The notes under the pieces: model-generated
What the model was told of the DNA's origin: nothing
Seen by the model: only the letters and a program-made list of their open reading frames with translations
The model's database searches: none
Made by a program: the position numbers and the translations under genes
DNA from: Holophagales bacterium UBA2201
GTDB taxonomy: Bacteria; Acidobacteriota; Thermoanaerobaculia; UBA2201
Assembly (NCBI GenBank): GCA_002327305.1
Contig: DCUZ01000019.1
Span: 47,030 to 81,344, forward strand
Direction: 5' to 3'
Length of the DNA stretch: 34,315 bases
In this document: piece by piece, positions 12,226-34,315 of the stretch
Layout: each line of letters starts with the position of its first letter
Position numbering within the stretch: position 1 is the first letter of the stretch

Positions 12226-12311
12226 GGCGGACACCTCCGTCTTTTCTTTGGTTCCATTATACGCCGGTCCCGCCCCCCGCGGTCCGACCTCCCTTGGGAG
12301 CGGGCCAGAGG

Positions 12312-12317
12312 TATAAT
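12312..12317 (+). promoter_or_regulatory. -10 element (ggTATAATaat) upstream of ridA; divergent from ppk2
   Basis: The same ggtataataat motif occurs at 3311. Confidence 0.35.
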
Positions 12318-12344
12318 AATGCGACATCGCAAAGGAGGAACGCC

Positions 12345-15374: not shown

Positions 15375-15860
15375 ATGTCCCGCACCCCCCTGCCCTACAG
15401 CAAGGTCCTCCTGGACCACTTCCGCAACCCCCGCAACCAGGGGCCCATGGAGGCGGCCGACGTCGTCGCCAAGGCCGGCAGCCCCGCCTGCGGCGACATG
15501 ATCACCTTCTACCTCAAGGTCGCCGGCGACGCGGTGGAGCGCATCTCGTTCGAGAGCTACGGGTGCGCCGCCAACATCGGCACCGCTTCGTACCTGACGG
15601 AACTGGTGGCCGGCCGGCCGCTGGAGGAGGCGTGGAAGGTCTCCTGGAAGCGCCTCTCCGACGACCTGGGCGGCCTCCCCAAGGTGAAGTTCCACTGCGG
15701 CATCCTGGCCGTGGGGGCCCTCCAGCGGGCCATCCGTGAGTACTACCGCGCCCGCGGCGCCGTCCCGGCCTGGATACCCCCGGACCTGACGGAGGAGGAG
15801 AAGAACGCCCAGGAAGAGGAAGAGCTGGCCTGCTCCATCGAGCACAAGCTCCACCCATGA
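15375..15860 (+). CDS. NifU/IscU-like Fe-S scaffold protein with acidic C-terminal extension
   Basis: The three scaffold cysteines are GSPACGD, YGCAAN and FHCGI. Confidence 0.8.
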   Translation: MSRTPLPYSKVLLDHFRNPRNQGPMEAADVVAKAGSPACGDMITFYLKVAGDAVERISFESYGCAANIGTASYLTELVAGRPLEEAWKVSWKRLSDDLGGLPKVKFHCGILAVGALQRAIREYYRARGAVPAWIPPDLTEEEKNAQEEEELACSIEHKLHP

Positions 15861-17922: not shown

Positions 17923-20900
17923 TCACTTCTGCGCCGGGATGAAGAAGGCGTCGTTGCTGGTGGTCCGATTGTCCACGACGGAAGCGTAGGCGTAGACGCT
18001 GCCGCCCGAGAGGACGGAGACCTCGCCCAGCGCCACCGCATGCGGCGCGGCAATGCCGAGGTCGCTGAAGATGTTGACCTGGAAATTGCCGTGGGCGGGG
18101 ACGGGGTAGGTCTTGAACCCCAGGACCGACCGGTTGGCGTCGTACAGCTTCACCTGCACCTGGGCGCCCTGGCCGGAAACCTCGGTGAACCCCACGTTGC
18201 TCCGGTAGTCGGCGGTGTTGGCCAGTTGGAGCAGAAGGCCCGTCTCGCCGGGGGCGATGAGGTCCGCGGCGGCCCCCCGGGCGGGGATGAACTGCCCGAA
18301 GGTCCCCAGCCCTGCCGTCGAGGTGTAGGTGCGGGAGGTGACGATCAACCCCTGGGATGACTGAAGGTGCAGGGCCCCCGAGGTGTTGCCCGTGACGGAG
18401 GGGAAGAGGGTGGTGAGAATGTCATCGCGGGAGACCAGCTCCCCCTGCCCGATCGTGAGATTGGCGGTGGCGGTGGCGCCGGCGGCCACGTAGGTGAGGG
18501 TGACCGCCTGGGAGGCGAACGGGTTGTAGAGGCGCAAATCGGTGCGCCAGTTGGACCCGTACCCCCCCTGCGTCCGGGCGGCGGCGGCCACCACCTGATG
18601 CGCCTGCCCCTGGACGTCGCCGGCGCGCTGGATGGGGATGAAGATGGGATCGGAGGAGATGTTGTCGGCGACGGAGGCGTAGGCGGCGAACACGGCCCCC
18701 GGCGTGGAAGAGGTCACGACCGCGTAGGCGTCGTCCACGGCGGCCGAAGTGAGGGCGTCCATGACATAGTTCTGCTGGTAGTGCTCGAAGGGGTTGAGGG
18801 TGCGCGACCAGTCCCCGATGTGCGACCCGTCCGCCCGGTGGAAGGAGAATTTGACCTCGACGAAACCGCTCCCCGCATTCACCACCCCCACGTTGGTCCG
18901 GAACCCGGCGTTTTTGGCCAGGTGCAGGAGGATCCCCTCCTCCCCGCTTTTGAGCAGGCGGGAGGAGAGGGTGGCGGGGATGAACTGCCCGTAGGTGCCC
19001 AGGACCCCGCGGTCGTTGTAGGTGCGGGAGGTGATCGCCAGGGGTTGGGTGGAGGTCAGCCACAGGGCCCCCGCCAGGTTGTTGAGGCGGAACATGCTCC
19101 CCACGATGTCCCCCAGCCGGACGAACCGGAACCCCGGCAGGATCACCTCGGACCCGGCGGCGGCGGCGTTGTCCTGCCCGCTGGGGAGGAAGTAGGCGTA
19201 GACCGAGATCTCTGCGCTTCGGGGGTTGTGGACCACCACGTCGGAGAGCCAGTTGGTGTTGTTGGCCCCCTGGGCCTTGGCCGCCGCCGGAAGAAGATAG
19301 GTGTAGGGCTGGGCGGTGGTCAGCGGCGGGACGATGCCGCGTCCGTAGACGATGACCTGCTTGGTGGCGGATGAGGTTCCGAAGGCATTGGAAACCGTCA
19401 GCGTGACGGGGAAGGTGCCGGAGAAAAGATAGGTGTGGACGGGGTTCTGCTCCATCGAGGTGGTCCCGTCACCGAAGTCCCAGGACCAGGCGGTGGGGAC
19501 GAGGGAGGAGGCGTCCACGAACTGAAGGCCGGTGCCGATCTCGGGGCGGCCGGCGAACCAGGCAAAATCGGCCACCGGCGGGGCGTTGAAACCGTAGATC
19601 CAGGCCACCCCCGCGGCGTCATCGGGGTGGGGCGTCCGCTTGTTGCTCGAGGGGCCCGATCCGGCGTAGCCGTACATCACCTTGTCCCGATCGTCGCCAT
19701 CCCCGTAGAGGTCGCGCAGGGTGAGCCAGTGGCCGGTCTCGTGGAGGACGATGGAATGGACGTCAAAGGCCCCGCTGGGCGTGGTTTCGGCGATGCTGTA
19801 GTTGAACTTGGTGTTGAGGACGAGGTCGGCCTCCACCATGTATCCCTGGGCATTGGACCAATAGGTGGCGTAGCCGAGGGTGTTTTCGTAGCCGGGCCCG
19901 AGGTCGGAGGCCATGATCTCGCTCTTTCCATTGTTGCGCAGGTCCCGATTCTCCGTGGTCCCGGCCTGGGTGAACACGATGTTGCCGTGCTGGCCCCAGG
20001 TCCCGGTGGAGGCCGCCACGGTGGCGGTCCAATCGGGGATATTACTTCCGAGGTAATAGGAGATCGTGGGGGGGGCGCCGTTCCATTTCATGCCGCCGTA
20101 GCCGAAGGAGACCTTGTAATCGTACCCCGGCGACTTGGCCCCGGCGCTGTTGGTCACCCAGACGGGACCGGTGGCGGCGGAGCCGGGATACCCGGCCACG
20201 CGCCCGATGGGCACCTGCACCCGGATGACATTGTCGTTCCATTCGGAGATGGTCGAGCCGGTGATGGTGGACTGCCCCTCGAAGGTGAACTGGACGCGGC
20301 TGCTGGTCCCCTTGGTGCCGAACCCCACGCCGCGGATGTAGGCCTCGGTGCCGGTGCCGGCGGAGGCCTTCTCCGGGTGCATCTCCACGATCATGGGGCC
20401 GGTGCCCGGCTGGTCCTCCGCGGGGGGCTCCATCTTCTTGGCGATGAGGGCCCACTCCTTGTTGGACGGATCCATGAAGTCGTCGGGAGCGGCCTGCCCC
20501 TCCCGGTAGGATTCGATGCGGAAATCGTATTCCTGGCGCGCGGAACCGTAGAGATTGAGGATCCGCGCGTCGGTGGAATCGTAGTTGGTGATGACATAGA
20601 GCGGGGTGGTATAAAGGTGGGACCAGGCGGTGGTCCCCGCCAGGCGCCAATAGACCTTGTCGAAGACGGTGATGGAGCCGCTCCCCCCCTTGACGTCGGC
20701 GTCCCACAGGAGGCGGCCGAACTGGATGTACCCGTCGCCGTCATAGTCCACCTCGTAGTCCCAGTTCGCCAAAACCAGATTGGAGGTCAGCGCCCGTCCC
20801 GGCGGGGCGGCGGCGTCCGCCGGCTTCTCGATCCGGGAAGCGTCCAACGGGGAGATGGCGCCCCCCGATTCGACGACGGGGCCGAGCCCCAGAAGGGTCC

Positions 20901-21399
20901 CGTACAGGTCGGCGCCGGGATCCCGCCGGAAGGCCTCCACCGCGTCCATGAACCGTTCGACCGGCACCTCCACCCCCTCGACCCGCACGGAGCCGGCCTC
21001 AATGGGGAACTTCCCCTGGAAACCGCCCATGACGACGCGCCGGGGCCCCTTGAGGAAGAGGACCGCCTCTTCGCCAACCTCGAAAGTGGCCAGGTCGGTG
21101 ACGACCTGCCTCCATTCGCCCACCTCTCCGCCCAGAAGGGTCAGGAGAAGGGTCTCGCCGGGGGCATGGCCCTTGAGGAGGCGGCCGGGGACAAGGGTGA
21201 CGGTGGTGTAGATGTTGCGCCCGTCCCCCTCCTCCACCCACCGGCTCTCCATCGCCTGGACGCGGACGGAGAGGATCAGGTCGGCCTGGCCGACCATCTC
21301 CTCCAGCGGCATCCGCACCACGAGGGCAGGGGCCGCAAGGGAGAGGCCGAGCAGGAGGATGGTAAGGGCGAACCACGGGGAAATCCGATGATAGTGCAT
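17923..21399 (-). CDS. secreted multidomain zinc metalloprotease (HExxH) with IPT/TIG-like and PKD domains and two C-terminal copies of an uncharacterised ~200-aa domain
   Basis: Start ATG 21399 with RBS GGAGG; signal peptide MHYHRISPWFALTILLLGLSLAAPA. HETGHWLTLRD zinc site, WDFGDGTTS...NPVHTY PKD motif. Tandem repeats with SRTY..G.LGT(Y/F)GQFIPA and YASV.DN..S.D.FIP motifs. Confidence 0.85.
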   Translation of the reverse strand: MHYHRISPWFALTILLLGLSLAAPALVVRMPLEEMVGQADLILSVRVQAMESRWVEEGDGRNIYTTVTLVPGRLLKGHAPGETLLLTLLGGEVGEWRQVVTDLATFEVGEEAVLFLKGPRRVVMGGFQGKFPIEAGSVRVEGVEVPVERFMDAVEAFRRDPGADLYGTLLGLGPVVESGGAISPLDASRIEKPADAAAPPGRALTSNLVLANWDYEVDYDGDGYIQFGRLLWDADVKGGSGSITVFDKVYWRLAGTTAWSHLYTTPLYVITNYDSTDARILNLYGSARQEYDFRIESYREGQAAPDDFMDPSNKEWALIAKKMEPPAEDQPGTGPMIVEMHPEKASAGTGTEAYIRGVGFGTKGTSSRVQFTFEGQSTITGSTISEWNDNVIRVQVPIGRVAGYPGSAATGPVWVTNSAGAKSPGYDYKVSFGYGGMKWNGAPPTISYYLGSNIPDWTATVAASTGTWGQHGNIVFTQAGTTENRDLRNNGKSEIMASDLGPGYENTLGYATYWSNAQGYMVEADLVLNTKFNYSIAETTPSGAFDVHSIVLHETGHWLTLRDLYGDGDDRDKVMYGYAGSGPSSNKRTPHPDDAAGVAWIYGFNAPPVADFAWFAGRPEIGTGLQFVDASSLVPTAWSWDFGDGTTSMEQNPVHTYLFSGTFPVTLTVSNAFGTSSATKQVIVYGRGIVPPLTTAQPYTYLLPAAAKAQGANNTNWLSDVVVHNPRSAEISVYAYFLPSGQDNAAAAGSEVILPGFRFVRLGDIVGSMFRLNNLAGALWLTSTQPLAITSRTYNDRGVLGTYGQFIPATLSSRLLKSGEEGILLHLAKNAGFRTNVGVVNAGSGFVEVKFSFHRADGSHIGDWSRTLNPFEHYQQNYVMDALTSAAVDDAYAVVTSSTPGAVFAAYASVADNISSDPIFIPIQRAGDVQGQAHQVVAAAARTQGGYGSNWRTDLRLYNPFASQAVTLTYVAAGATATANLTIGQGELVSRDDILTTLFPSVTGNTSGALHLQSSQGLIVTSRTYTSTAGLGTFGQFIPARGAAADLIAPGETGLLLQLANTADYRSNVGFTEVSGQGAQVQVKLYDANRSVLGFKTYPVPAHGNFQVNIFSDLGIAAPHAVALGEVSVLSGGSVYAYASVVDNRTTSNDAFFIPAQK

Positions 21400-21503
21400 T
21401 TTTGCCTCCAAATAGGGTTTACGGATATGGACCATGCCGCATCGCCGGCCTGGGCCTGCATGATAACGCTTTGCGGGTAGAATGATATTTCCTTCCGCCC
21501 TTC

Positions 21504-21534
21504 TTGTCAAATGGCCCCCGCTTTCCGTTACAAT
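21504..21534 (+). promoter_or_regulatory. candidate promoter TTGTCA-N19-TACAAT giving a leaderless or near-leaderless GT4 transcript
   Basis: The -10 ends about 10 nt before GTG 21544. Confidence 0.3.
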
Positions 21535-21543
21535 GGAGGGGCC

Positions 21544-22644
21544 GTGAAGCCCCTCTCCGTCCTTTTCGTCCTCGAATACTATCCCCCGCACATCGGCGGC
21601 GTGGAGACGATGTTCGCCGCCCTGGCGGGGGAACTGGCCCGTCGGGGGCACCGGGTCCGGGTCTTCACGGGGAGCGTCCCGGGGGCGCCGGACCGGGAGA
21701 CGGCCGGAGGGGTGGAGATCGTCCGCGTCCCCCTGGGCCCCTGGCGCCGCTTCCGGTTCACCTTTGGAATGACGCGGCGGCTGTCCCCCCTGGCCCGGGA
21801 GGCCGACCTGGTCCACGCCTCCACCTACTCGGGGACCTGGTCGGCCGTGCATGCGGCGCGGGCGGCGGGACGGCCGGCGGTCGTTTCGGTCCACGAGGTG
21901 TGGCTGGACCTCTGGAAGCGGGTCCCCTTCGTTCCGGCCCTCCAACGCTGGACCGCCCCGTGGCAGGAGCGGTTCCTCCTCCGCCTCCCCTACGACGCCT
22001 ATTCCGCCGTTTCGCGGGCGACGATGGAGCGCCTCCACCCCTTCTCCGGGGGCCGGCCGGTGTTCCATGTCCCCGCGCCGGTGGCCGTCCCGGAGGGGGT
22101 CCGCTGGTCGTCCCCCCCCCCTCCCTTCACCTTCCTGTATTTCGGCCGCCCGGGCCACTGGAGGGGGCTCGATCTGTTGCTGAAGGCCTTCGCCACACGG
22201 CGAGCGGGGGGGTCGGAAGCGCGGCTTGAGCTCATCCTCAGCCCTGAACCCCGGCGCGAGCGGGCCGCCCTGTTGTGCCTGGCGGAGGCGCTGGGGCTCG
22301 GGCCCGCCCTGGCGGTGCGGGAACCCCTTCCCCGCGAGGCCCTGTTCGACCGGCTGGCCTCGGCGCACGCGGCCGTCTTCCCTTCGTTGAGCGAGGGGTT
22401 CGGCCTGGCGGCGGCGGAGGCCTGCGCCCTCGGCGTCCCCGTCGTGGCCTCCGACGCCGGCTCCCTGCCGGAGGTGGTTTCGGGGCGGTGCCTCTTCTTC
22501 CCCGCGGGAGACGCGACGGGCCTGGTCCGCGCCCTGGAACGGGCCGAGCGGGGGGAGTGGGAGGAGCGGCCGCCGGTCCGCTTTCCCTTAAACGCCTCCG
22601 TCGAGGCCCTTCTGGCGATGTATCAAAGTATAATGAAGCCATGA
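21544..22644 (+). CDS. GT4 family glycosyltransferase (GT-B fold)
   Basis: N-terminal EYYPPHIGGVE and C-terminal PSLSEGFGLAAAEACALGVPVV (EX7E). An in-frame alternative ATG at 21511 lies inside the predicted promoter. Confidence 0.8.
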   Translation: MKPLSVLFVLEYYPPHIGGVETMFAALAGELARRGHRVRVFTGSVPGAPDRETAGGVEIVRVPLGPWRRFRFTFGMTRRLSPLAREADLVHASTYSGTWSAVHAARAAGRPAVVSVHEVWLDLWKRVPFVPALQRWTAPWQERFLLRLPYDAYSAVSRATMERLHPFSGGRPVFHVPAPVAVPEGVRWSSPPPPFTFLYFGRPGHWRGLDLLLKAFATRRAGGSEARLELILSPEPRRERAALLCLAEALGLGPALAVREPLPREALFDRLASAHAAVFPSLSEGFGLAAAEACALGVPVVASDAGSLPEVVSGRCLFFPAGDATGLVRALERAERGEWEERPPVRFPLNASVEALLAMYQSIMKP

Positions 22645-24856: not shown

Positions 24857-25927
24857 TTACGGGCGCGGGGCCTTTTCGCCCATGTAGAGTTCGATTTCCG
24901 AGAGAAAATCTTCGACGATGTTTTCCAGGCCGAGGACCTTGTGGGGCCTGCCCTTCTTGAAGACCAGCGCCCGCCCCGCCCCGAAGGCCAGGCCGATCTC
25001 GGCCAGGCGCGCCTCTCCGGGGCCGTTGACCTCGCACCCCATCACGGCCACGTGGACGTCCCACTTCCTTTTCCGGATGGCCTTTTCCACCGAAGTCACT
25101 ATAGGCAGGATGGGAACGCGGGTGCGGCCGCAGGTGGGGCACGACACCACCACCGCCCCGCCGGGGAGCATCCCCAGCGCCCGGAGGATCTCCCGACCCG
25201 CCCTCACCTCCGCCTCGGGCCTCCCCGTCAGGGAGACGCGGAGGGTGTCGCCGATCCCCTCGAACAGGAGCATCCCGATGCCGATGGCCGACTTCACCGT
25301 CCCCGCATAGGCGGTCCCCGCCTCGGTGACGCCGAGATGCAGGGGGTAGTCGGTCTTCTTCGCCAGGAGGCGGTAGGCCGCCACGGTGGTGGGGATGTCG
25401 GAGGCCTTGACGGAGATCTTGATGTCGCGGAAATTCAGATCCTCGAGGATCGCGGCGTGGCCGAGGGCCGACTCCACCAGCGCGCCGGCCGTGGGCCAGC
25501 CGTGCTTTCTCAGCAGTTCCTTTTCCAGCGACCCCGCGTTGACCCCGATGCGGATGGGGACCCTGCGCGCCCGCGCCGCCTCGACCACCCGTTCCACGCG
25601 GGCGCGGGCGCCGATGTTGCCGGGGTTGATGCGCAGGGCGTGGACCCCGGCGTCCAGCGACGCCAGGGCGAGGCGGTGGTCGAAGTGGATGTCGGCCACG
25701 ACGGGGAGGGGCGAACCCTTCACGATGGCCCCCAGCGCTTCGGCGGCCTCGGCGTCGGGGACGGCGAGGCGGACGATGTCGCACCCCGCGCGGGCGGCGG
25801 AACGGACCTCCCGCAAGGTGGTGGCCGCGTCTCGGGTGTCGCTCTTGGTCATGGTCTGGACGCTCACGGGGGCGCCACCGCCCACAGCCACGGGGCCGAT
25901 GAGGAGCTTCCGGGTCTTGCGCCTCAT
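24857..25927 (-). CDS. ispG: 4-hydroxy-3-methylbut-2-enyl diphosphate synthase (IspG/GcpE)
   Basis: Full-length similarity, C-terminal CPTCGR 4Fe-4S motif. ATGA overlap with the rseP stop. Confidence 0.9.
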   Translation of the reverse strand: MRRKTRKLLIGPVAVGGGAPVSVQTMTKSDTRDAATTLREVRSAARAGCDIVRLAVPDAEAAEALGAIVKGSPLPVVADIHFDHRLALASLDAGVHALRINPGNIGARARVERVVEAARARRVPIRIGVNAGSLEKELLRKHGWPTAGALVESALGHAAILEDLNFRDIKISVKASDIPTTVAAYRLLAKKTDYPLHLGVTEAGTAYAGTVKSAIGIGMLLFEGIGDTLRVSLTGRPEAEVRAGREILRALGMLPGGAVVVSCPTCGRTRVPILPIVTSVEKAIRKRKWDVHVAVMGCEVNGPGEARLAEIGLAFGAGRALVFKKGRPHKVLGLENIVEDFLSEIELYMGEKAPRP

Positions 25928-27246
25928 AGGAGCTTGAGGATGTCGAAGACGAGGACCACGGCGAAGAGCGTCATCAGGAAGGCGAAGCCGGCCTGGATGA
26001 GGCGATACTTGAAGGCGGCCTTGAAGTCGCGCCGCATCAACCCCTCCAGCGTCAGGATGAACATGTGCCCCCCGTCGAGCAGGGGGATGGGGAGGAGGTT
26101 GAAGATGGCCAGTTGGAGGGAGATGAGCCCCATCAGGTGGAGGAAGTTGGCCGGCCCGGTGCGGATGAACTCGCCCGAGATGCGGGCCATGTCCAGGGGG
26201 CCGGAGACCTGCCGGATGGAGCCCTTGCCCTGCAGGAGTTTCTTCAGAAAACGGTAGGAGAGGGTGGCGCCGTCGAGGCAGGCGATGCCCCCCCGGCGGA
26301 ACGATTCCACGAACCCGTAGCGCTTCAGGGCCGTCCCCTCGCCGGCGGCGTCGAAGAGGACCCCCATCTGTCCGACCCCGTCCACCGACGCCAGGGTCAC
26401 CTCGGTCCGGACCCGCTCCGCCCCCCGCTCCACCTCCAGCGCGAGCGTGGCGCCGGGATTGGCGCGGGCGATCTCCACCACCGCGGCGTAGTGATGAATG
26501 GGCGCGCCGTCCACGGCGGCGATGATGTCGCCCGCTTGGAGGCCCGCCGCCTGGGCCGGGGTGCCGGGGTTGACCTGCTGGATGCGCGGGCGCGCCTCGG
26601 GGTAGACGCCGATGTCGCCCACCCGGTACTTCCCCTTCTTTTCGATCTGCACCGGGAGCCGGAGGCCCTCCCCGCCGCGGAGCACCTCGAAGGTGACCCG
26701 CTCCCCCCCGGAAAGGAGGACGGTCTCGGAGAAGGCCTGCCAATCGGGGAGGGCCTTCCCCTCCACGCCGGTGATCCGGTCTCCGGGGAGGATCCCCGCC
26801 CGCCCGGCGGGCCCTTCGGCGTCCACGAACCCCACCACCACCGGCTTCTCCAGGAGCGCCGGCACCTGGATGCCGACCATGAAGGAGGCGCTCGTGAAGA
26901 GAAGGGCGGCGACGAGGTTGGCGGCGGAGCCGCCCATGAAGATGAAAAACCGCTTCCACCGGGGCCCCGCCATCGAAGGGGGCGGGGTGTCCCCCTCGCG
27001 GGCGATGAGGTCGGACTCGTCCAGCCCCAGCCCCTTGACCTTGACGTACCCCCCCAGGGGGATCCACGAGACCCGGTAGTCGGTCTCCTGCCGGCGGAAC
27101 CCCCACGCCCGGGGCCCCAGGCCGATGGAGAAGACCTCCACGGGAAAGCGGAACGCCTTGGCCAGGAGGAAGTGCCCCGCCTCGTGGAGGGTCACCAGGA
27201 TGCCCAGGACGATGAGAAAACCGAGGATGCTCTGCAGAACGGCCAT
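25924..27246 (-). CDS. rseP: RIP site-2 metalloprotease RseP (M50) with PDZ domains
   Basis: HEAGH zinc motif in TM1, PDZ repeats, C-terminal LDGGH. Confidence 0.9.
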   Translation of the reverse strand: MAVLQSILGFLIVLGILVTLHEAGHFLLAKAFRFPVEVFSIGLGPRAWGFRRQETDYRVSWIPLGGYVKVKGLGLDESDLIAREGDTPPPSMAGPRWKRFFIFMGGSAANLVAALLFTSASFMVGIQVPALLEKPVVVGFVDAEGPAGRAGILPGDRITGVEGKALPDWQAFSETVLLSGGERVTFEVLRGGEGLRLPVQIEKKGKYRVGDIGVYPEARPRIQQVNPGTPAQAAGLQAGDIIAAVDGAPIHHYAAVVEIARANPGATLALEVERGAERVRTEVTLASVDGVGQMGVLFDAAGEGTALKRYGFVESFRRGGIACLDGATLSYRFLKKLLQGKGSIRQVSGPLDMARISGEFIRTGPANFLHLMGLISLQLAIFNLLPIPLLDGGHMFILTLEGLMRRDFKAAFKYRLIQAGFAFLMTLFAVVLVFDILKLL

Positions 27247-27249
27247 GGA

Positions 27250-28425
27250 TTATTCAACCTTTCGGACGGCACCGTTTAGTTCGGCCCGGGCCAGGCGCCG
27301 GGCCCGCCCGGCCGCGTCGAGGAGGGCCGGCAAGTCGGGCATGGGGGGATCGTCCCACCGCTCGAGGGCGTTTTGCACCGCTTCCGCGATGCCCAAAAAC
27401 CCGACCCGCCCCCGCAGGAACTCCCCCACGGCCAGTTCGTTGGCCAGGGAGAAGACCATGGGGTACCCTCCCCCGCGGCGCAGGGCTTCGTAGCCCAGCG
27501 GGAGGAGGGGGAACTTCTTCCCATCCACCGGGAGGAACGAAAGCGTCATCCCCGGGAACCGGACCCGCCCGAAGGGGGAGGGGAGGCGGCGGGGCCAGGA
27601 AAGGGCGTACTGGATGGGAAACTTCATGTCGTTGGGGCTCACCTGGGCCAGGACCGAACCGTCGCGGTACTGGACCATCGAATGGATCTGGCTCTGGGGA
27701 TGGACCACCACCTCGATGGCCTGGGCCGGAAAGCCGAAGAGGAAGTGGGCCTCGATCACCTCCAGGGCCTTGTTCCCCAGCGTGGCGGAGTCGATGGTGA
27801 TCTTGGGCCCCATGGACCAGGTGGGGTGCCGGAGGGCCTCCTCCACCGTGATGGAGGCGAATTCCGACCGTTTCTTTTTCAGGAACGGCCCGCCGGAGGC
27901 GGTGAGGATCAGTTTCTCCACCTCGCTGCGCTTCCCCGATCGAAGGCCCTGGTGGAGGGCGCAATGCTCACTGTCGATGGGAAGGATGCGGCGGCCGCGG
28001 CGGCGGGCCTCCCGGTTGAACAGCGCCCCGGCCATCACCATGGCCTCCTTGTTCGCCAGGGCCAGGTCCTTGCCCGACTCCAGGCAGCGGAACGCGGGGA
28101 CCAGCCCCGCCTCCCCCACGATGGCCGCCACCGCCATCTCGGCCTCGGTCTCGGCCGCCAGATCGGCGATGGCGGCGTCCCCGGCATAGACCCTGGCGCG
28201 GGGGAGGGCCCGTTTCACCTCCCTGGCGGCCCCGGCATCGGCCACCCCGACGCGCCGAACGCCGAACCGGCGCGCCTGCTCGATCAGCCGCTCGGTGTTC
28301 CTGCCCGCCACGAGGGCGGCGATGGAAAACTCGTCCCGGAAGTGATGGACCACCTCCAGGGTGGAGACGCCGATGGAGCCGGTGGAGCCGAGGAGGATGA
28401 TCCTCTTCACGGGAGCGACTTCCAC
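27250..28425 (-). CDS. dxr: 1-deoxy-D-xylulose 5-phosphate reductoisomerase (Dxr)
   Basis: LGSTGSIG NADPH motif and DSEH. GTG start; an alternative in-frame GTG at 28410 gives VKRIILLGSTG. Confidence 0.9.
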   Translation of the reverse strand: MEVAPVKRIILLGSTGSIGVSTLEVVHHFRDEFSIAALVAGRNTERLIEQARRFGVRRVGVADAGAAREVKRALPRARVYAGDAAIADLAAETEAEMAVAAIVGEAGLVPAFRCLESGKDLALANKEAMVMAGALFNREARRRGRRILPIDSEHCALHQGLRSGKRSEVEKLILTASGGPFLKKKRSEFASITVEEALRHPTWSMGPKITIDSATLGNKALEVIEAHFLFGFPAQAIEVVVHPQSQIHSMVQYRDGSVLAQVSPNDMKFPIQYALSWPRRLPSPFGRVRFPGMTLSFLPVDGKKFPLLPLGYEALRRGGGYPMVFSLANELAVGEFLRGRVGFLGIAEAVQNALERWDDPPMPDLPALLDAAGRARRLARAELNGAVRKVE

Positions 28426-28575
28426 GCGTAGAGGGCCAGGCCGGGATGGTTTCTTTGTAGGGGCACCGCATGCTGTGCCCTTGCGGTGGTAAGAGCGAGC
28501 CGCCCTCTCCCGATCAGTCTATGAAAGAGGCGCTTCACGGCAAGGACTTCCAGGCGTAGAGGGCCAGCGCGGCCC
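28420..28575. repeat. 28-bp direct repeat of the cdsA 3' terminus flanking a 100-bp insert between cdsA and dxr
   Basis: acttccaggcgtagagggccagcgcggcc (28548-28575) versus acttccacgcgtagagggccaggccggg (28420-28447). The 28407..29120 ORF reuses the CdsA C-terminus YAWKSLP. Confidence 0.7.
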
Positions 28576-29317
28576 AAAGCAAGCTGTCGGTCCGGTCCCA
28601 GAACCCGCCGTGGCCGGGGAAGAAGGCGCCGCTGTCCTTCACCTCCAGGTCCCGCTTCAACAGCGACTGGATGAGGTCGCCCCAGAAGCAGGCCAGCCCC
28701 ATCGCCAGGCCGGCCGCGGCGTTCGGCCAGGAGAGGCCGAAGAAACCGAGGGTGACGGCGACGGCGGCCAGGTGGAGGGCCACCGTCCCCTCCCAGGTCT
28801 TCTTGGGGCTCACGGCCGGGGCCACCGGGTGCCGGCCCATCGTCTTGCCGGCGTAATAGGCCGTGCTGTCGGAGACCCAGACGACGGCCAGAAGATAGAG
28901 GATCAGCTTGATCCCCTCTTCGGGGCCGAAATGGGTCCGCAGGGCGGCGACAGCCCCTCCGGGGAGGCCGAAGAGGAGGGGCAGGGCCGTGGCGTAGTAG
29001 AGGCGAAAAGCCCCCCCCTGGAGGGGTTGAGGTATCGCCAGCACCGCCATGGCCGGGAGGAAGAGGGCCGCGCACAGGACCGGGAGGGCGGGGAGGCGGA
29101 AAAACAGCCACGCCCCCCACAGGGCCGTCAGGGCCATGACCAGGGCGAAGAGGAGGGGGTTGGTGCGGGAAAGGTAGAGTTTCGCGGCCTCGGCGGCGGC
29201 GAGAAGGACCACCAGGGCGGCGAGGACCTGAAACCCCGCGGGGGGAAGGAGGAAAAAGATCCCCGCGATCAGGGCGATGCCGACGGCGGCCGTGGCTTCG
29301 CGCCTAACCGAGGCCAC
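28535..29317 (-). CDS. cdsA: phosphatidate cytidylyltransferase (CdsA)
   Basis: Polytopic membrane protein with the CdsA C-terminal signature SDSTAYYAGK...FPGHGGFWDRTDS. GTG start with RBS GGAGG. Confidence 0.85.
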   Translation of the reverse strand: MASVRREATAAVGIALIAGIFFLLPPAGFQVLAALVVLLAAAEAAKLYLSRTNPLLFALVMALTALWGAWLFFRLPALPVLCAALFLPAMAVLAIPQPLQGGAFRLYYATALPLLFGLPGGAVAALRTHFGPEEGIKLILYLLAVVWVSDSTAYYAGKTMGRHPVAPAVSPKKTWEGTVALHLAAVAVTLGFFGLSWPNAAAGLAMGLACFWGDLIQSLLKRDLEVKDSGAFFPGHGGFWDRTDSLLWAALALYAWKSLP

Positions 29318-30005
29318 CGAACCTCCGCTCCCGCCCCGCGTAGTCCTCCAGGGCCGCGTTCAGGTGCCCGGCCCGGAAGTCGGGCCAGTGGACGGGGGTG
29401 ATGTGCAGTTCGGCGTAGGCCAACTGCCAGAGGAAGAAGTTGCTGACGCGCATCTCGCCGCTGGTGCGGATGAGCAGGTCGGGGTCGGGGAGGGAGGGGT
29501 CGTAGAACCGGGCCTGGAGCGCCGCCTCGTCCACCGCTCCGGCCCCTTCGTCCAGGAGGCGCTGCATGGCGTCCAGGATCTCCGTCCGTCCGGAGTAGTT
29601 CAGCGCGAGCGTCAGATAGAGGCCGGTGTTGTTAGCCGTTTCGGCGATGGTCTGCTTCAATTTGGCCTGGACGGCGGGATGGAGGTCCCCCAGGCGACCG
29701 ATGGCGTGGAAGGAGACGTTGTGGGCCATCATGGTGGGGAGTTCCTGCTCCATGTAGAGGTTCAACAGCCCCATGAGGGCGTCCACCTCCTCCTTGGGCC
29801 GCTTCCAGTTCTCGGTGGAGAAGGCGAAGAGGGTGAGGTAGCCGATGCCCCGCTCGGCGCACGCCGTCACCACGGCCCTCACCGACTCGATCCCCGCCCG
29901 GTGCCCCTCGATGCGGGGCAGGCCCCGCCCCTTGGCCCAGCGGCCGTTGCCGTCCATGATCACGGCGATGTGGCGGGGAAGTTTCGCGTTGGCGGGTTGA
30001 GGCAT
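29304..30005 (-). CDS. uppS: undecaprenyl diphosphate synthase (UppS, cis-prenyltransferase)
   Basis: HIAVIMDGNGRWA ... RTSGEMRVSNFFLWQLAYAEL. Start ATG 30005; the 3' end overlaps the cdsA start by 14 nt. Confidence 0.9.
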   Translation of the reverse strand: MPQPANAKLPRHIAVIMDGNGRWAKGRGLPRIEGHRAGIESVRAVVTACAERGIGYLTLFAFSTENWKRPKEEVDALMGLLNLYMEQELPTMMAHNVSFHAIGRLGDLHPAVQAKLKQTIAETANNTGLYLTLALNYSGRTEILDAMQRLLDEGAGAVDEAALQARFYDPSLPDPDLLIRTSGEMRVSNFFLWQLAYAELHITPVHWPDFRAGHLNAALEDYAGRERRFGGLG

Positions 30006-30049
30006 CCGCCTATTGTATATGAACCCCCGGTTTGGCTCAAGGGGCGGGG

Positions 30050-30080
30050 ACTTTGAACCTGAAACCTGGAACTTGAAACT
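30050..30080 (+). repeat. GAAAC heptamer array (ctgaaac-ctggaac-ttgaaac)
   Basis: Same repeat family as 13996 and 10694; lies 34 bp upstream of a C-tract-flanked -35. Confidence 0.65.
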
Positions 30081-30114
30081 GGGCGGGAGGTAGCGCGGAA
30101 TATCCCCCCCCGCC

Positions 30115-30146
30115 TTGACACGCCCCCCCGTCTGCGTTACTATAAT
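30115..30146 (+). promoter_or_regulatory. consensus promoter cccccccccgccTTGACAcgccccccc ... TACTATAAT upstream of the flotillin gene
   Basis: -35 TTGACA in a poly-C context; -10 TACTAT (17 bp) or TATAAT (20 bp). Confidence 0.5.
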
Positions 30147-30251
30147 TATTGAGAAAATATTCACAACACAGGCCTCGGGTCGGACCCGCTTTTCCCCCCG
30201 GCGGGCTGGCGTGAATTTTTTCCGTTCGATCGACAACAACAGGAGGTCGTC

Positions 30252-31643
30252 ATGTTGACTTGGGTCATTATCATCCTGGCCGCCGTAGCGGTCGTCGCCA
30301 TTCTCATCGCCTTCCTCACCAAGCAGTATAAGAAGGTCGCCCCCAACCAGGTGCTCGTCGTCTCCGGCGGGGCGAAATACACCCTCACCGGCCCCGACGG
30401 CGCCACCAAGCAGGTGGGATACCGCCTCCGCGTGGGTGGCGGCGCCTTCATCAACCCCTTCACCGAGAAGGCCGAGACGATGACCCTCGAGGTCATCTCT
30501 GTGACGATCAAGACCCCCGAAGTGCTCTCCGGCGAGGGGGTCCCGCTGGTGGCCGAGGCGACCGCCCAGGTGCGCATCGACACCGCCGACTACCCGCTGG
30601 CCCTGGCCGTGGAGCAGTTCCTTGGCTCCGGCGCCGAGGGGATCCGCCAGGTCTCCGAGACCATCCTCGAGGGGGCCGTCCGCGCCGTCATCGGCCAGAT
30701 GAAGGTGGAGGAGGTCTACAAGGACCGCATGGGGTTCGCCGAGCGCGTCGGGGACATGGTGGAGGACGACTTCGCCCGCATGGGCCTCCAGATGGTCTCC
30801 TTCGCCCTCAAGGACGTCTCCGACACCCAGGGCTACCTCGACGCCCTGGCCAAGCCCAAGATCGCCGCGGTGAAGCTGGCCGCCCAGGTGGCGCAGGCCG
30901 AGGCCGACCGCGACGCCGCCATCCAGACCGCCGAGGCCCGCAAGCAGGCCGAGATCGCCCGCCTGGCCGCCGAGGCCGTCATCGCCGGCAAGTCGTGGGA
31001 GAACGAGGGGAAGAAGGCCGATTCACAGGTGGCCGTCAACACCAAGAAGGCCCACGCCGACATGTCCTACGAACTGGAGCGCAACAAGATCGCCCAGGCG
31101 CTGAAAAAGGAGGAGCACGCGGTCAAGATGATGGACAAGGACAACGCCATCAAGCTCGAGGAGCTCGAGGTGGTGCGCCGCCAGAAGGAATTGGAGTCCT
31201 CCGTCATCAAGCCGGCCGACGCCCGCAAGTACCAGATCCAGGCCGAGGCCGAGGCCGAGTCGTTCCGCCTCTCCGCCGAGGCCAAGGGGAAGGCCGAAGC
31301 CAAACGGGTGCAGGCCGAGGTGGACGCCGCCTCGGTCAAGCAGATGGGGACGGCCGAGGCCTCCGCCATCGCCGAGAAGGGCAAGGCCTACGCGCAGTAC
31401 AGCCAGGCCGCCGTCACCAAGATGATGGTGGACATGATGCCCGAGATGGCCAAGGCCGTGGCCGAGCCCCTCTCCCGCGTGGAGAAGGTGGTCCTCATCG
31501 GCAGCGACGGCAAGACCGGCGCCGGCAAGCTCACGGGGCAGGTGGCCGAGGTGATGGCCCAGATCCCCGAGGTGGTGGAAGCGGTCTCCGGCATCGACCT
31601 CAAGAAGATCCTGAAGGAAAAATTCTCCGGCGGCAAGGAATAG
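30252..31643 (+). CDS. flotillin / SPFH-domain membrane scaffold protein
   Basis: N-terminal TM helix, SPFH domain, long Ala/Glu/Lys-rich coiled-coil C-terminus. RBS AGGAGG. Confidence 0.85.
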   Translation: MLTWVIIILAAVAVVAILIAFLTKQYKKVAPNQVLVVSGGAKYTLTGPDGATKQVGYRLRVGGGAFINPFTEKAETMTLEVISVTIKTPEVLSGEGVPLVAEATAQVRIDTADYPLALAVEQFLGSGAEGIRQVSETILEGAVRAVIGQMKVEEVYKDRMGFAERVGDMVEDDFARMGLQMVSFALKDVSDTQGYLDALAKPKIAAVKLAAQVAQAEADRDAAIQTAEARKQAEIARLAAEAVIAGKSWENEGKKADSQVAVNTKKAHADMSYELERNKIAQALKKEEHAVKMMDKDNAIKLEELEVVRRQKELESSVIKPADARKYQIQAEAEAESFRLSAEAKGKAEAKRVQAEVDAASVKQMGTAEASAIAEKGKAYAQYSQAAVTKMMVDMMPEMAKAVAEPLSRVEKVVLIGSDGKTGAGKLTGQVAEVMAQIPEVVEAVSGIDLKKILKEKFSGGKE

Positions 31644-31667: not shown

Positions 31668-34013
31668 ATGACCATTTCTGAACGAGCGAACCAGATCGCG
31701 GCCTCGCCGACGCTGCGCATCGCGGCCAAGGCCAAGGCCATGCAGGCCGAGGGGATCGACCTGGTCGATTTCTCCATCGGCGAGCCCGACTTCCCCACTC
31801 CCGCCGCAGTCAAGGCCGCGGGCGCGCGCGCCATCGACACCAACTTCACCAAGTACACCGCCAACGAGGGGATCCCCGACCTGCGTCAGGCCATCTGCGA
31901 CCGCATCCGCGAGGACTACGGCGTCCAGTACCAGCCGGGGGAGATCCTCGTCTCCTGCGGGGCCAAGCATTCCCTCTCCCTGATCATGCAGGCCATCCTC
32001 AACCCCGGGCAGGAGGTGATCATCCCCGCCCCCTACTGGGTCTCCTACACGGAAATGGTGCGCCTGGCCGGGGGGGTCCCCGTGATCGTGCAGGCCAAGG
32101 AGGAGAACGGGTTCAAGCTGACGGCGGAACAGCTGAAGGCGGCCATCACCGCCAACACCAAGGCCGTCCTCCTCAACTCCCCCTCCAACCCCACCGGGGC
32201 CGTCTACTCCCGCGGCGAACTGGAGGCCCTGGCCCGGGTCGTCGTGGCCGAGGGGATCCTCTGCATCGCCGACGAAATCTACGACAAATTGCTTTTCGAC
32301 GACTTCAAGTACACTTCGTTCCCCTCCCTGGGGCCGGAGGTCAAGAAGCGCACCCTCCTGGTGAACGGCGTCTCAAAGGCCTACGCCATGCCCGGATGGC
32401 GCATCGGTTATACCGCCGGCGACGCTGCCATTATCGCCGCCATGGGGAAGGTGCAAAGCCAGACTACCTCCAACGCCGCCTCCATCTCCCAGAAGGCGGC
32501 CCTCGAGGCCTTCGCCGGGCCCCAGCACGAGGTGTCGAGGATGACGGCCGAGTACCAGCGCCGCCGCAACTATGTCCTCAACCGCCTCGAGTCCATCCCC
32601 AACATCCACTGCGTCAAGCCCGACGGCGCCTTCTACGCCTTCCCCAACATCGAGGCCTATTACGAGAAGGAGTTCGACGGTACCGTCATCCGCAACTCCT
32701 ACGGCATGGCCTACTACCTCCTGCGCCATGCCAACGTGGCCATCGTCCCCGGCGACGCTTTCGGGGCCCCCGCCAACATGCGCATCTCCTACGCCACCTC
32801 CATGGAAAACCTGGAGAAGGGGATGAGCCGCTTAATAGATGCCTTCGCGCGGCTCAAAACCCCGAAGAAAGTGCGGCGCACGGCCCTGCAGAACGCCGTG
32901 ACCAAGGTGAAAAAGCAGGTCCCCGTGGACGCCCGTGTCGCCCCTGACCGGCGCGACGCCCTGGCCGGCGAGGCGCAGAGCCAGTTGACCCACGACGCCT
33001 ACTACGAGTGGAACGCCAACATCAACGGCGTCGTCGTGCAACTGCGCACCAACGTCCCGCACCTCTACGACTTCTGGATGGAGAACTGGTACCCCGCGGA
33101 GCTCGAGGCGGGGATCGAGCCCCACGGCCTCATTTACGCCGTGGACGGCCTCACGGGCCGGGAGCCCCACGCCTTCTACTGCTCCGAGACCAAGACCGGC
33201 TTCCTCTTCAACGCCGACCACTACGGCTCCCTCCGCTCGCTGGCCCTCGGGCTGGTGACCGACGTCGGGGAGCGCCTCTTCGACGTCCACGGCGTCCGCG
33301 GCCTCTCCCTCGACATCGAGGGGACCGGCGCCGTCTTCGTGGGCCCGGCGGGGACCAAGAAGACCGAGATCGCCTTCGGCCTCCTGGCCCAGCCCGGCGT
33401 GGCCCTCCACAGCGCCGACTACCTCCTGGTCCGCTACGGCGGGGGGTTCGCCGCCGCCGACAACCCGGAGCGGAAGGCCTACCTCCCCACCCGCGTGGTG
33501 GAGGCGTTCCCGCCGCTGGCCAAGCTGATCGACCGCTCGCGGTGCGAAAACGTCGTCACCGCCAAGGAGGACTGCCGCCACGCCGAGTGCCTCCTGGCTG
33601 AGGACTGCCGCCTCGACAAGGGGTCGCCCTTCTGCTTCAAGGCCGCGGGCAAGTCCCACGCCCTGCTCGACCCCTACTGGCTGGGCGGGATGCGCAAGCA
33701 CGTCAAGCGCATCGACGTGCGCTTCGTCTTCCTCCTCAAGAACGACCCGCTGGGGTTCCCCACACAGGTGCTCGACGCCGAGGAGGCCGTGCGCCACCTC
33801 GAGCTCGGGCAGGCCTACGGCTCGGGGACCGTCAAGAACCAGCCCTTCTACAACCCCCACTGGCTCACCGACACCTCCGAGCGCGCCGAACTGCAGAAGC
33901 GCTTCTGGCGCCGCCTCCTCAAGGGGGCCAAGGCGGTGGTCCTCAACACCGCGGGGATGACGGCCGAGGAAGCCCAGGGCAAGGTCCTGGAGATCGTCAG
34001 CAAGGGAGCGTAG
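31668..34013 (+). CDS. aspartate aminotransferase (residues ~1-400) fused to a C-terminal ~380-aa HprK-like P-loop domain with a cysteine cluster
   Basis: N-terminal half has the PLP lysine motif SKAYAMPGWRIGY. C-terminal half has VHGVRGLSLDIEGTGAVFVGPAGTKKTEIAFGLLAQPGVALHSADYLLV, which tracks the HprK P-loop (G.SG.GKSE...LV.DD), followed by C-x9-C-x4-C-x5-C-x9-C. Confidence 0.8.
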   Translation: MTISERANQIAASPTLRIAAKAKAMQAEGIDLVDFSIGEPDFPTPAAVKAAGARAIDTNFTKYTANEGIPDLRQAICDRIREDYGVQYQPGEILVSCGAKHSLSLIMQAILNPGQEVIIPAPYWVSYTEMVRLAGGVPVIVQAKEENGFKLTAEQLKAAITANTKAVLLNSPSNPTGAVYSRGELEALARVVVAEGILCIADEIYDKLLFDDFKYTSFPSLGPEVKKRTLLVNGVSKAYAMPGWRIGYTAGDAAIIAAMGKVQSQTTSNAASISQKAALEAFAGPQHEVSRMTAEYQRRRNYVLNRLESIPNIHCVKPDGAFYAFPNIEAYYEKEFDGTVIRNSYGMAYYLLRHANVAIVPGDAFGAPANMRISYATSMENLEKGMSRLIDAFARLKTPKKVRRTALQNAVTKVKKQVPVDARVAPDRRDALAGEAQSQLTHDAYYEWNANINGVVVQLRTNVPHLYDFWMENWYPAELEAGIEPHGLIYAVDGLTGREPHAFYCSETKTGFLFNADHYGSLRSLALGLVTDVGERLFDVHGVRGLSLDIEGTGAVFVGPAGTKKTEIAFGLLAQPGVALHSADYLLVRYGGGFAAADNPERKAYLPTRVVEAFPPLAKLIDRSRCENVVTAKEDCRHAECLLAEDCRLDKGSPFCFKAAGKSHALLDPYWLGGMRKHVKRIDVRFVFLLKNDPLGFPTQVLDAEEAVRHLELGQAYGSGTVKNQPFYNPHWLTDTSERAELQKRFWRRLLKGAKAVVLNTAGMTAEEAQGKVLEIVSKGA

Positions 34014-34056
34014 CGTGAGAGAAAATGCCCACAGCAATCGTCCTGTGTTTATTCTG

Positions 34057-34140
34057 TCCGGCTTTCCGGCTTTCCCGCGTTCCCGCGTTCCCGCTTTCCC
34101 GCCTTCCAGCCTTCTAGCCTTCCAGCCTTCTAGCCTTCCC
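34057..34140 (+). repeat. pyrimidine-rich tandem heptamer array (YTTCC core) in the leader of the downstream gene
   Basis: ccggctt-tccggct-ttcccgc-gttcccg-cgttccc-gctttcc-cgccttc-cagcctt-ctagcct-tccagcc-ttctagc-cttcccg. Confidence 0.75.
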
Positions 34141-34150
34141 GAGGTGACCC

Positions 34151-34315
34151 ATGGCCGGTGATATTTTCAACTTGGAAGCCTACAAGCAATTCGTCGAGGC
34201 CCTGGGCCCGGCCCTGCAAGGTCCCAACATCCGCCACGTGGACCAGGACTGGCTGGAACCGCGGGCGCGGGAGTTCGGGACCCGGACCAAGTACGGCTCC
34301 TACGGCTGGCGCTCC
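34151..34315 (+). CDS. 5' fragment of a hypothetical protein; continues past the window end
   Basis: ATG 34151 (MAGDIFNLEAYKQFVEALGP...), open to the window end; preceded by the heptamer array. Confidence 0.4.
   Translation, partial: MAGDIFNLEAYKQFVEALGPALQGPNIRHVDQDWLEPRAREFGTRTKYGSYGWRS

Follow-up and report, generated by a model that had tools for sequence, protein, structure and literature searches.

Aspartate aminotransferase (AspAT) catalyses the reaction Asp + 2-oxoglutarate <-> oxaloacetate + Glu. In PEPCK-type C4 photosynthesis and in gluconeogenesis from aspartate, it is paired with phosphoenolpyruvate carboxykinase (PEPCK) in the route Asp <-> oxaloacetate <-> PEP. The shared intermediate, oxaloacetate, is unstable and lies at a major metabolic branch point. 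PEPCK also has a P-loop subdomain in common with HprK. In the window, by which we mean the whole 34,315-nucleotide stretch analysed, a single gene joins an AspAT to a compact PEPCK-fold module, and a PEPCK-like gene follows. The features of the locus were as follows.

30115-30143: promoter-like site TTGACA-17-TACTAT, a consensus match only
30252..31643, + strand: flotillin-like SPFH/Band 7 gene, 463 aa (PF01145, E 6.5e-26), first of a conserved three-gene cluster
31668..34013, + strand: fusion ORF, aspartate aminotransferase plus PEPCK-fold module, 781 aa, ATG start
31668..32843, + strand: class Ib aspartate aminotransferase domain (aa 1-392; PF00155, E 1.6e-77)
32376..32378, + strand: codon of the PLP Schiff-base lysine K237, aligned with K234 of Thermus AspAT (PDB 1BJW) and kept in 80/80
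32844..34010, + strand: compact PEPCK-fold module "X" (aa 393-781); standalone relatives begin near aa 400
33342..33368, + strand: P-loop G559-P-A-G-T-K-K-T-E567, equivalent by alignment to E. coli PckA 248-256
33573..33635, + strand: Cys loop C636-x4-C641-x5-C647-x8-C656, inserted in the hairpin that lies between the "ENV" motif and the R333-equivalent position
34057..34141, no strand: 8-nt unit (TTCCAGCC / TCCCGCTT) repeated in tandem about 9.5 times, within the fusion-PCKL spacer
34152..34315, + strand: start of the PEPCK-like gene PCKL (MAGDIF...GPNIRHVDQDWLEPRAREFGTRTKYGSYGWRS), first 54 codons, running off the window end

A Recurrent Single-Frame Fusion

The 781-aa ORF was found exactly where the initial annotation had placed it. 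Its GC3 was 0.94, uniform along the frame and similar to that of the adjacent genes. In 78 related loci, from several phyla, the contig covered both halves, and 76 of these loci carried them in a single unbroken frame of 765-783 aa, and the Cys codons were likewise read straight through in 76 of the 78. The two exceptions corresponded to one run of N and one alignment overhang beyond the natural stop. The fusion is genuine and recurrent, not an artefact. Some database matches ended near aa 595-630 or started at an internal Met; selenocysteine recoding, programmed frameshifting and true standalone genes were rejected as explanations, the cases examined having arisen at contig edges, in runs of N or from frameshifts beyond which the homology went on in another frame.

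The module was present in 409 species-level genomes, with 339 cluster representatives at E<=0.001. The flotillin, fusion and PEPCK-like cluster was observed in several phyla. Public annotation did not describe the fusion, its names mentioning the aminotransferase only, and a literature search covering the fusion, PEPCK-like plus aminotransferase proteins, Aminicenantes PEPCK/AspAT and PEPCK pseudoenzymes returned nothing relevant. The earlier remark that no aminotransferase-HprK fusion had been described agreed with both.

The Aminotransferase Half

A complete class-I aspartate aminotransferase with its PLP lysine had been predicted, and the searches bore this out. The PF00155 match spanned residues 31-389 (E 1.6e-77 in the Pfam search), K237 was located in SKAYAMPGWRIGY, and K100, W124, N174, D202, Y205, K237, R245 and R372 were each invariant in all 80 relatives (80/80). 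These include the PLP-binding residues expected of class Ib (K237, N174, D202, Y205 and R245) and both residues for dicarboxylate recognition, namely R372 for the alpha-carboxylate and K100, the class Ib distal-carboxylate lysine (GGKQ motif of Thermus AspAT). The nearest solved structures were class Ib AspATs and prephenate aminotransferases (E 1e-103 to 1e-85). The top NCBIfam match was the aspartate transaminase NF004769, at 441 bits, below the equivalog cutoff of 617. Judged from these sequence comparisons, the family placement is secure and the exact substrate range is not.

A Compact PEPCK Paralogue

The C-terminal module is a compact PEPCK-fold paralogue of PEP carboxykinase. Direct sequence searches of the module against Pfam and PDB sequences gave no matches, and Pfam and NCBIfam searches gave no match of the module of this window to PF01293 or TIGR00224. 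The relationship surfaced only through a fold search and profile-profile comparison: the module has the two-lobed PEPCK fold, and hhalign against the neighbouring PEPCK gave 91-97%. The standalone relatives also matched a PEPCK subfamily (NF006821, E 1e-14 to 1e-6). A full-length AlphaFold model of the fusion, run for domain packing, reached a pTM of 0.55 and was uninformative about it, the aminotransferase half being poorly modelled because the alignment was shallow. The initial annotation had seen an HprK-like P-loop in this half. The P-loop does belong to the HprK/PEPCK superfamily, but the family is PEPCK, a different known domain with which the module aligns confidently, and there was no significant HprK match.

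Residue conservation was counted over 99 module sequences, with equivalences to E. coli PckA taken from profile alignments. The predicted KKTE-type P-loop was present at 559-567 as GPAGTKKTE. G562 was invariant (99/99), and the Lys254/Thr255 pair of the PEPCK phosphate/Mg2+ site was retained as K565 (95/99) and T/S566 (94/99); the S250 and G253 positions were both mostly Lys across the family. The PEPCK Mn2+ ligand set K213, H232 and D269 was incomplete: K213 was replaced by S524 (Ser in 94/99) and H232, here H541, was kept in only 73/99, with D269 kept as D584 in 97/99. The Y207 equivalent was kept in 98/99, K212 was R/K in 97/99, and D268 was replaced by Asn/Ala. Of the two oxaloacetate/PEP-binding arginines, R333 was not preserved, its position (H664 here) being variable (H38/Y19/R19/A10/F8) and not conserved within the fused clade; the region of the other, R65, aligned to a low-confidence linker, "RLKTPKK". 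The adenine-binding C-terminal segment (R449/T455 region) was missing, the module stopping at about E. coli residue 467 with WNGTGKR deleted. With three residues of the Mn2+/oxaloacetate chemistry (K213, D268 and R333) replaced and the adenine tail absent, the module therefore probably does not run the carboxykinase reaction itself.

The cleft-lining motifs ERK, ENV, LDPxW and NPH were highly conserved, and family-specific invariants in motifs lining the cleft were H465, E601-R602-K603, E627-N628, D668-P669, N729 and N760. Over the same 59 genomes, mean pairwise identity was 0.63 for the module vs 0.70 for the aminotransferase and 0.69 for PCKL, which points to strong constraint on the module, nearly as conserved as the flanking enzymes. 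The conserved P-loop and cleft motifs fit a live enzyme as well as a regulator, and R602/K603 could have taken over functionally from R333/K288 through residue migration, which also speaks against coupling.

The Gene Cluster and the Neighbouring PEPCK

In essentially all of the 80 genome loci, the gene immediately upstream of the fusion was a flotillin homologue, at a median distance of 38 nt. On the other side, the PCKL start matched the N-terminus of the 611-aa PEPCK_ATP proteins located 3' of the fusion in two other loci (L001 and L005). The spacer measured 138 nt here vs a median of 23 nt in the other loci. The order flotillin, fusion, PCKL was observed in about 70 of the 80 genome loci and the module was upstream of PCKL in 70 of 72 PCKL-seeded metagenome loci, both 80-locus samples being dominated by related MAGs and not independent. 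The fusion and PCKL are probably co-transcribed. Across the PCKL family, R65, Y207, K212, K213, H232, K254, D268, D269 and R333 were all present (64/64), and the neighbouring PEPCK is by its residues catalytically complete. One protein, P0101, is a natural fusion of the module with PCKL; its module lacks the P-loop Lys, and there is no aminotransferase nearby.

Not all loci showed this arrangement. Seven Aminicenantes loci kept the fusion without an adjacent PCKL, and the standalone module relatives did not adjoin PEPCK; both observations count against a coupling of the two. The neighbourhoods of the standalone relatives (Dehalococcoidia; ndk-yicC-gmk; radical-SAM and thioredoxin) had no consistent partner.

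Proposed Role and Alternatives

We propose that an active class Ib AspAT has been joined to a PEPCK paralogue which serves in tethering and/or regulation together with the neighbouring PEPCK, and we give this reading as a whole a probability of about 0.45. In this model, the N-terminal half would carry out the AspAT reaction given above. The module, with its two-lobed PEPCK cleft, working-looking P-loop (Lys/Thr) and D269-type Asp, would bind a phosphate-bearing ligand and pair physically with the PEPCK of the adjacent gene, which has a full catalytic set. Such pairing may link transamination with oxaloacetate <-> PEP interconversion, whether labile oxaloacetate is channelled or the two enzymes are regulated together. 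The cluster suggests a hard-wired link between enzymes making and consuming oxaloacetate. The domain identities, the fold, the residue conservation, the gene order and the natural module-PEPCK fusion were observed; the coupling is preferred because the AspAT is intact (80/80), the neighbouring PEPCK is complete (64/64), the synteny holds in both directions and P0101 joins the module to PCKL; the profile-level similarity of module and PEPCK, the altered catalytic set of the module and the strong constraint on it also speak for coupling.

It is possible, though we consider it rather unlikely, that the module is itself an active PEPCK-superfamily enzyme with altered chemistry or an altered phosphoryl donor that acts on oxaloacetate or on some other compound made or used by the aminotransferase; one protein would then have two activities, and a second, separate step would fall to the neighbouring PEPCK. 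The high counts for the P-loop Lys and Thr/Ser and for the D269, Y207 and K212 equivalents are in line with this, as are the family invariants lining the cleft, the near-equal conservation of module and flanking enzymes, and an intein found immediately after the P-loop in a distant homologue, a type of site typical of functionally critical motifs. Against it stand the conserved Ser at the K213 Mn2+ ligand, the variable R333 position in the fused clade, the Asn/Ala at D268 and the absence of the adenine-binding segment. Moreover, the P0101 lineage keeps the module despite a destroyed P-loop, and the Asp-OAA-PEP route has no gap that a further reaction would need to fill. We regard as doubtful a new PEPCK-superfamily enzyme whose rebuilt site (Ser for the Mn-ligand Lys, the ERK triad, the Cys4 loop, no adenine pocket) would draw on a phosphoryl donor bound by the P-loop (such as PPi, polyphosphate or any NTP); its substrate would be a 2-oxo acid, oxaloacetate or a related one, supplied by the fused aminotransferase. 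If true, Acidobacteriota, Aminicenantes, Calditrichota, Ignavibacteria and relatives would have a so far undescribed reaction, or mode of energy coupling, where PEP, oxaloacetate and aspartate meet.

The cysteines had been described as a cluster of five. C626, C636, C641, C647 and C656 are all present, but only four are co-varying ligand positions. C626 is unrelated: it is buried and stands where the PEPCK "LLENV" motif has Leu, alternating there with L/V/I. All four loop positions were Cys in 70 of the 99 sequences. One 13-member clade had C641H and C656S with a new Cys at +3, Zixibacteria-like members kept only two of the four, and the loop was deleted in the distant standalone forms and in P0101. 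The structure model placed it in a surface hairpin, at lower confidence (pLDDT 74-82). The loop (Cx4Cx5Cx8C) would most likely form a structural metal site of the Zn type; an exchange of Cys for His with four ligands retained is more typical of Zn sites. The deletion in standalone relatives and P0101 makes the loop accessory. It seems improbable that the protein senses redox state or acts as a redox switch at the Asp/OAA/PEP node, with an Fe-S cluster or redox-active disulfides in the loop. The conservation in 70/99 and the ligand-type Cys/His exchange with its compensating Cys shift would suit this role, but the Zn-like character of that exchange, the accessory nature of the loop, the members with two Cys and the lower model confidence in a surface hairpin argue against it.

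There is very little likelihood that the module is an HprK/P-like kinase/phosphorylase which phosphorylates a protein (the aminotransferase, PEPCK or another) or senses a metabolite to regulate transamination. It shares the P-loop superfamily with HprK/P (PF07475, TIGR00679), but PF07475 gave no Pfam match at E<=1, and TIGR00679 scored E 0.2 and 10.9 bits vs a cutoff of 240. The Walker A signature of HprK, GxSGxGKSE, is replaced by GPAGTKKTE in the window. In HprK, the catalytic unit consists entirely of a kinase domain of some 170 aa, with the HprK N-terminal domain in front of it; the module is not built this way, a full PEPCK N-lobe standing in place of that N-terminal domain. The gene content of the window and of the related loci gave no sign of PTS genes. 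Finally, an annotation or assembly artefact joining two adjacent genes through a missed stop or frameshift, a caveat of the initial annotation, has practically no chance of being correct: fragments were frequent among the database matches and the halves were called as separate genes in some loci, but these split cases were contig edges, runs of N, or frameshifts within the aminotransferase part with homology resuming in another frame, and the 76/78 uninterrupted frames from several phyla, with the uniform GC3, already refute it. The first reading was partly supported, its complete aminotransferase, real fusion and P-loop standing and its HprK family and five-Cys count not. The context that decides the matter, a catalytically complete PEPCK in the next gene, was not visible to it.

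Comparison with Known Systems

An AspAT welded to a PEPCK paralogue beside an active PEPCK would offer a ready-made system in which to study substrate channelling or the regulation of an enzyme by its paralogue. The module forms a sizeable family without a Pfam model and fills part of the gap in sequence space that separates PEPCK from HprK-like kinases. Annotation hides it under "aminotransferase", so that it is overlooked when the metabolism of these lineages, most of them uncultured, is reconstructed.

The N-terminal half resembles the AspATs of Thermus thermophilus (1BJW/1BKG) and Phormidium (1J32) and the bifunctional Asp/prephenate aminotransferases 5WMH and 6F35, with all active-site residues present; unlike the fusion, none of these solved class Ib relatives has a C-terminal extension. 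Compared with PckA (PF01293; E. coli 1AQ2, T. cruzi 1II2), the module is about 385 aa vs 520-610, lacks roughly the first 60-100 and the last 75 residues, the adenine-binding segment included, has no PF01293 match, adds the Cys4 loop and is joined to an aminotransferase. PCKL (about 606-620 aa; nearest NCBIfam NF006821) is paralogous to the module and co-located with it, but has the full-length architecture, all the catalytic residues and an Arg/Trp-rich C-terminal tail, which the module lacks. In the AspAT-PEPCK pairing of C4 photosynthesis and gluconeogenesis, the two consecutive reactions are the same and the enzymes are separate proteins, whereas here a PEPCK paralogue is welded to the aminotransferase and the genes are clustered.

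The aminotransferase fusion

The open reading frame was present exactly as described in the initial annotation:

31668..34013, + strand: fusion ORF, ATG start, 781 aa

Its GC3 of 0.94 was like that of the adjacent genes. The 84 relatives that a first protein search gave for the C-terminal half were all fragments, and many of these began at an internal methionine or ended near the cysteine region. A subset of cases was inspected for frameshifts, recoding and separate genes. The fragment in locus L001 was rejected as a real split, the break being a scaffold gap of N, as were L085 and L086 as split genes, in which frameshifts lay within the aminotransferase part and homology went on in another frame. 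A scan of species-representative genomes found the C-terminal module (aa 393–781) in 409 genomes, and in 80 fetched loci both halves were contiguous in a single frame. Both halves were complete in 78 loci, 76 of which read through stop-free over 765–783 aa; of the two exceptions, both trivial, one had a masked stretch of N and the other an alignment that ran on beyond the natural stop. An artefact, with the halves joined by annotation or assembly error, is excluded by this single open frame, and the fusion is genuine rather than the product of a missed stop or frameshift.

The closest locus came from a Holophagales (Acidobacteriota) MAG, with 96% identity, which makes this the probable lineage of the window. 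Further carriers bore the labels Aminicenantes, Calditrichota, Ignavibacteria, Bacteroidota and Fischerbacteria; labels such as "Eubacteriales" and "Chromatiales" on some MAGs are probably unreliable. One Calditrichota contig (L002) held two copies, at L002:2593-4422 (full length, 776 aa, beside ndk and the PEPCK-like gene described below) and at L002:10985-12422. The second, located 3' of a flotillin gene, was cut off after module residue 214 and adjoined an epimerase gene fragment on the opposite strand; it may be a rearrangement or misassembly.

In the N-terminal half (aa 1–392), residues 31–389 matched PF00155 (class I/II aminotransferase) with an E-value of 1.6e-77. The best NCBIfam models were aspartate transaminases, with their equivalog cutoffs unmet (441 vs 617 bits), and the nearest solved structures were class Ib aspartate aminotransferases (AspATs) and bifunctional aspartate/prephenate aminotransferases (8WKJ, 1J32, 6F35, 5WMH and 1BKG; E 1e-103 to 1e-85). 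When 80 family members were aligned with a Thermus AspAT reference identical in sequence to PDB 1BJW, the Schiff-base lysine K237, the residues N174, D202, Y205, W124 and R245, the alpha-carboxylate arginine R372 and the class Ib distal-carboxylate lysine K100 were each found in 80/80. Because all these PLP and substrate residues are invariant, this half is expected to catalyse the transamination of dicarboxylic amino acids, and its earlier description as a complete aspartate aminotransferase holds.

The C-terminal module has a PEPCK fold

With the module, a Pfam search was empty and no match was found among PDB sequences; family models gave no more than a weak HprK match at the P-loop (E 0.2). 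The AlphaFold2 model of the module, built from a 55-sequence alignment, reached a mean pLDDT of 91.4 and a pTM of 0.90 (the full-length fusion model was of low information, pTM 0.55). In the Foldseek comparison with the PDB, its top 35 matches were all ATP-dependent PEP carboxykinases (PEPCKs), followed by GTP-PEPCKs, with E about 2e-18 and TM 0.70–0.76 on the query over about 430 columns. Profile–profile comparison aligned module residues 4–389 with E. coli PckA 63–467 (93% probability) and the module with the neighbouring PEPCK-like protein (91–97%), and standalone module relatives matched the PEPCK subfamily NF006821 at E 1e-14 to 1e-6. Going by the Foldseek matches, the module holds both PEPCK lobes, and HprK has only the P-loop subdomain in common with it. 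The module thus has a PEPCK fold in compact form and is not an HprK; of the HprK-like half initially proposed, the P-loop subdomain stands and the whole does not.

Active site and cysteine loop of the module

Residues were counted over 99 module sequences, with E. coli PckA equivalences (in parentheses) taken from profile alignments, not structural superposition. The P-loop stretch quoted in the initial annotation was found at G559-PAGTKKT-E567. Conserved positions were Y519 (Y207) in 98/99, R/K523 (K212) in 97/99, G562 in 99/99, K565 (K254) in 95/99, T/S566 (T255) in 94/99 and D584 (D269) in 97/99, together with the "ENV" and "N-T/S" motifs. Others were changed: the Mn2+ ligand K213 was a conserved serine in 94/99, most members had Asn or Ala for D268, His stood at the H232 position in only 73/99, and the substrate arginine R333 was replaced by a variable position (H/Y/R/A/F). 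The first 60–100 and last ~75 residues of PckA were missing, and its adenine-binding WNGTGKR segment was deleted. Near-invariant motifs specific to the family were EWNAN, QLRTNxxH465, E601-R602-K603, LDPxW and FYNPH. Over the same 59 genomes, mean pairwise identity was 0.63 for the module, 0.70 for the aminotransferase and 0.69 for the neighbouring PEPCK; the module is strongly constrained and no decaying remnant. A distant homologue, P0166 (754 aa), carried an intein (PF14890, E 1.5e-16) directly after a canonical P-loop GTGKS.

The five cysteines reported as a cluster (C626, C636, C641, C647 and C656) were all present, and four are of ligand type. C626, at the Leu position of the PEPCK "LLENV" motif, alternates with L/V/I/T and is therefore buried rather than a ligand. 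An insertion in the hairpin that separates "ENV" from the R333 position holds the remaining four (Cx4Cx5Cx8C), which were all Cys in 70/99. In a Bacteroidota/Ignavibacteria clade of 13, C641 was His, C656 was Ser and a new Cys appeared three residues further on, so that four ligands were preserved. Some members kept only two of the four, and the loop was deleted in distant standalone forms. Such a pattern is typical of an accessory structural site for a metal, and it speaks against a catalytic role.

A conserved cluster with a PEPCK gene

The fusion was flanked by the following features:

30252..31643: flotillin-like SPFH/Band 7 gene, upstream of the fusion, gap 24 nt
34057-34141: 8-nt tandem repeat, TTCCAGCC / TCCCGCTT, about 9.5 copies, filling the spacer
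34152 to 34315, running off the end: start of a long PEPCK_ATP-like gene (PCKL), 3' of the fusion, 54-residue N-terminus match

These 54 residues matched the N-terminus of the 606–620-aa PEPCK_ATP-type proteins encoded 3' of the fusion elsewhere. At 138 nt, the spacer in the window exceeds that of relatives (median 23 nt); positions 34030-34047 hold a weak terminator-like hairpin. The order flotillin, fusion, PCKL was found in about 70 of 80 genome loci (median gaps 38 and 23 nt). Seven Aminicenantes loci had no PCKL there, and the fusion was directly followed by the SIS and acyltransferase genes usually found after PCKL. Conversely, in metagenome loci seeded with PCKL, which are closely related to one another and not independent, the module lay upstream in 70 of the 72 with enough upstream DNA, the remaining two being edge fragments with partial matches. 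The flotillin-like gene was immediately 5' of the fusion across phyla (about 80 loci); why a membrane-scaffold protein travels with two soluble metabolic enzymes is not obvious.

PCKL has diverged far from classical PckA, with E about 1e-6 in the search of PDB sequences. It is nevertheless the catalytically complete partner, with R65, Y207, K212, K213, H232, K254, S/T255, D268, D269 and R333 all conserved in 64/64. After a variable ~30-aa linker, its C-terminus, which lies outside the window, carried a conserved Arg/Trp-rich tail (L001, L005–L084). The tail reads ...SRPR[RK]PGxWRWR across most phyla, with ...SRPRRxxFWRSR as the Aminicenantes form; it may serve as a docking peptide or bind to membrane or flotillin. 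In L002, ndk was directly 3' of PCKL; it also neighboured the standalone module relative P0090 in locus L170 (ndk - module - yicC - gmk), and this adjacency may be chance. Standalone relatives differed from one another in their gene contexts.

In one protein, P0101 (899 aa), the module (residues 12–324) was joined directly to a PCKL-type PEPCK (357–881; 501 bits); the surroundings looked archaeal and included neither aminotransferase nor flotillin. Module and PCKL are thus linked independently of the aminotransferase. The PEPCK half was intact; the module had lost both its P-loop Lys (GSSENDIAT) and its Cys loop and kept most family motifs, so it can be retained without P-loop function. The Arg/Trp-rich tail was absent from P0101.

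Other genes in the window

10735-12327, - strand: two-domain polyphosphate kinase 2 (PPK2), 530 aa, E 2e-138
14205-15368 and 15857-17083, + strand: two class V aminotransferase (cysteine desulfurase-like) genes
17923-22368, - strand: very large ORF, 1481 aa, a PKD domain being the only recognisable part
25924-30239, - strand: rseP (M50 protease with PDZ domains), dxr, cdsA and uppS, divergent from the flotillin gene

A 161-aa ORF lay between the two class V aminotransferase genes. The longest uppS ORF (311 aa, TTG start) placed about 90 residues ahead of the Pfam domain, so the true start is probably further downstream.

Interpretation

The gene for an intact AspAT lies in a conserved operon-like cluster that also encodes a complete PEPCK, and an independent module–PEPCK fusion exists; the module is a PEPCK-fold paralogue with a conserved P-loop and an altered Mn/oxaloacetate site. 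We tentatively propose (probability about 0.45) that the module associates with PCKL and would thereby join the transamination Asp <-> oxaloacetate to the reaction oxaloacetate <-> PEP. It might channel the labile intermediate, sense a phosphate-bearing ligand, or do both. The main alternative, less probable than this, is an enzymatic activity of the module itself with rebuilt chemistry, which its level of conservation and cleft motifs permit. An Fe-S or redox role of the Cys loop, compatible with the other readings, is improbable, and slightly more so is a function as an HprK-like protein kinase, with which the module shares the P-loop subdomain and not the two-lobed fold.

In public records the protein was called either "aspartate/methionine/tyrosine aminotransferase" or "PLP-dependent aminotransferase" and nothing more, and Pfam has no model for the module. 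In agreement with the initial annotation, no description of the fusion was found in the annotation or literature searched; coverage of the literature was incomplete, so one may exist elsewhere. The fold is a familiar one, as are both enzyme families; the distinct compact PEPCK paralogue family, with its fusion and cluster architecture, is new.
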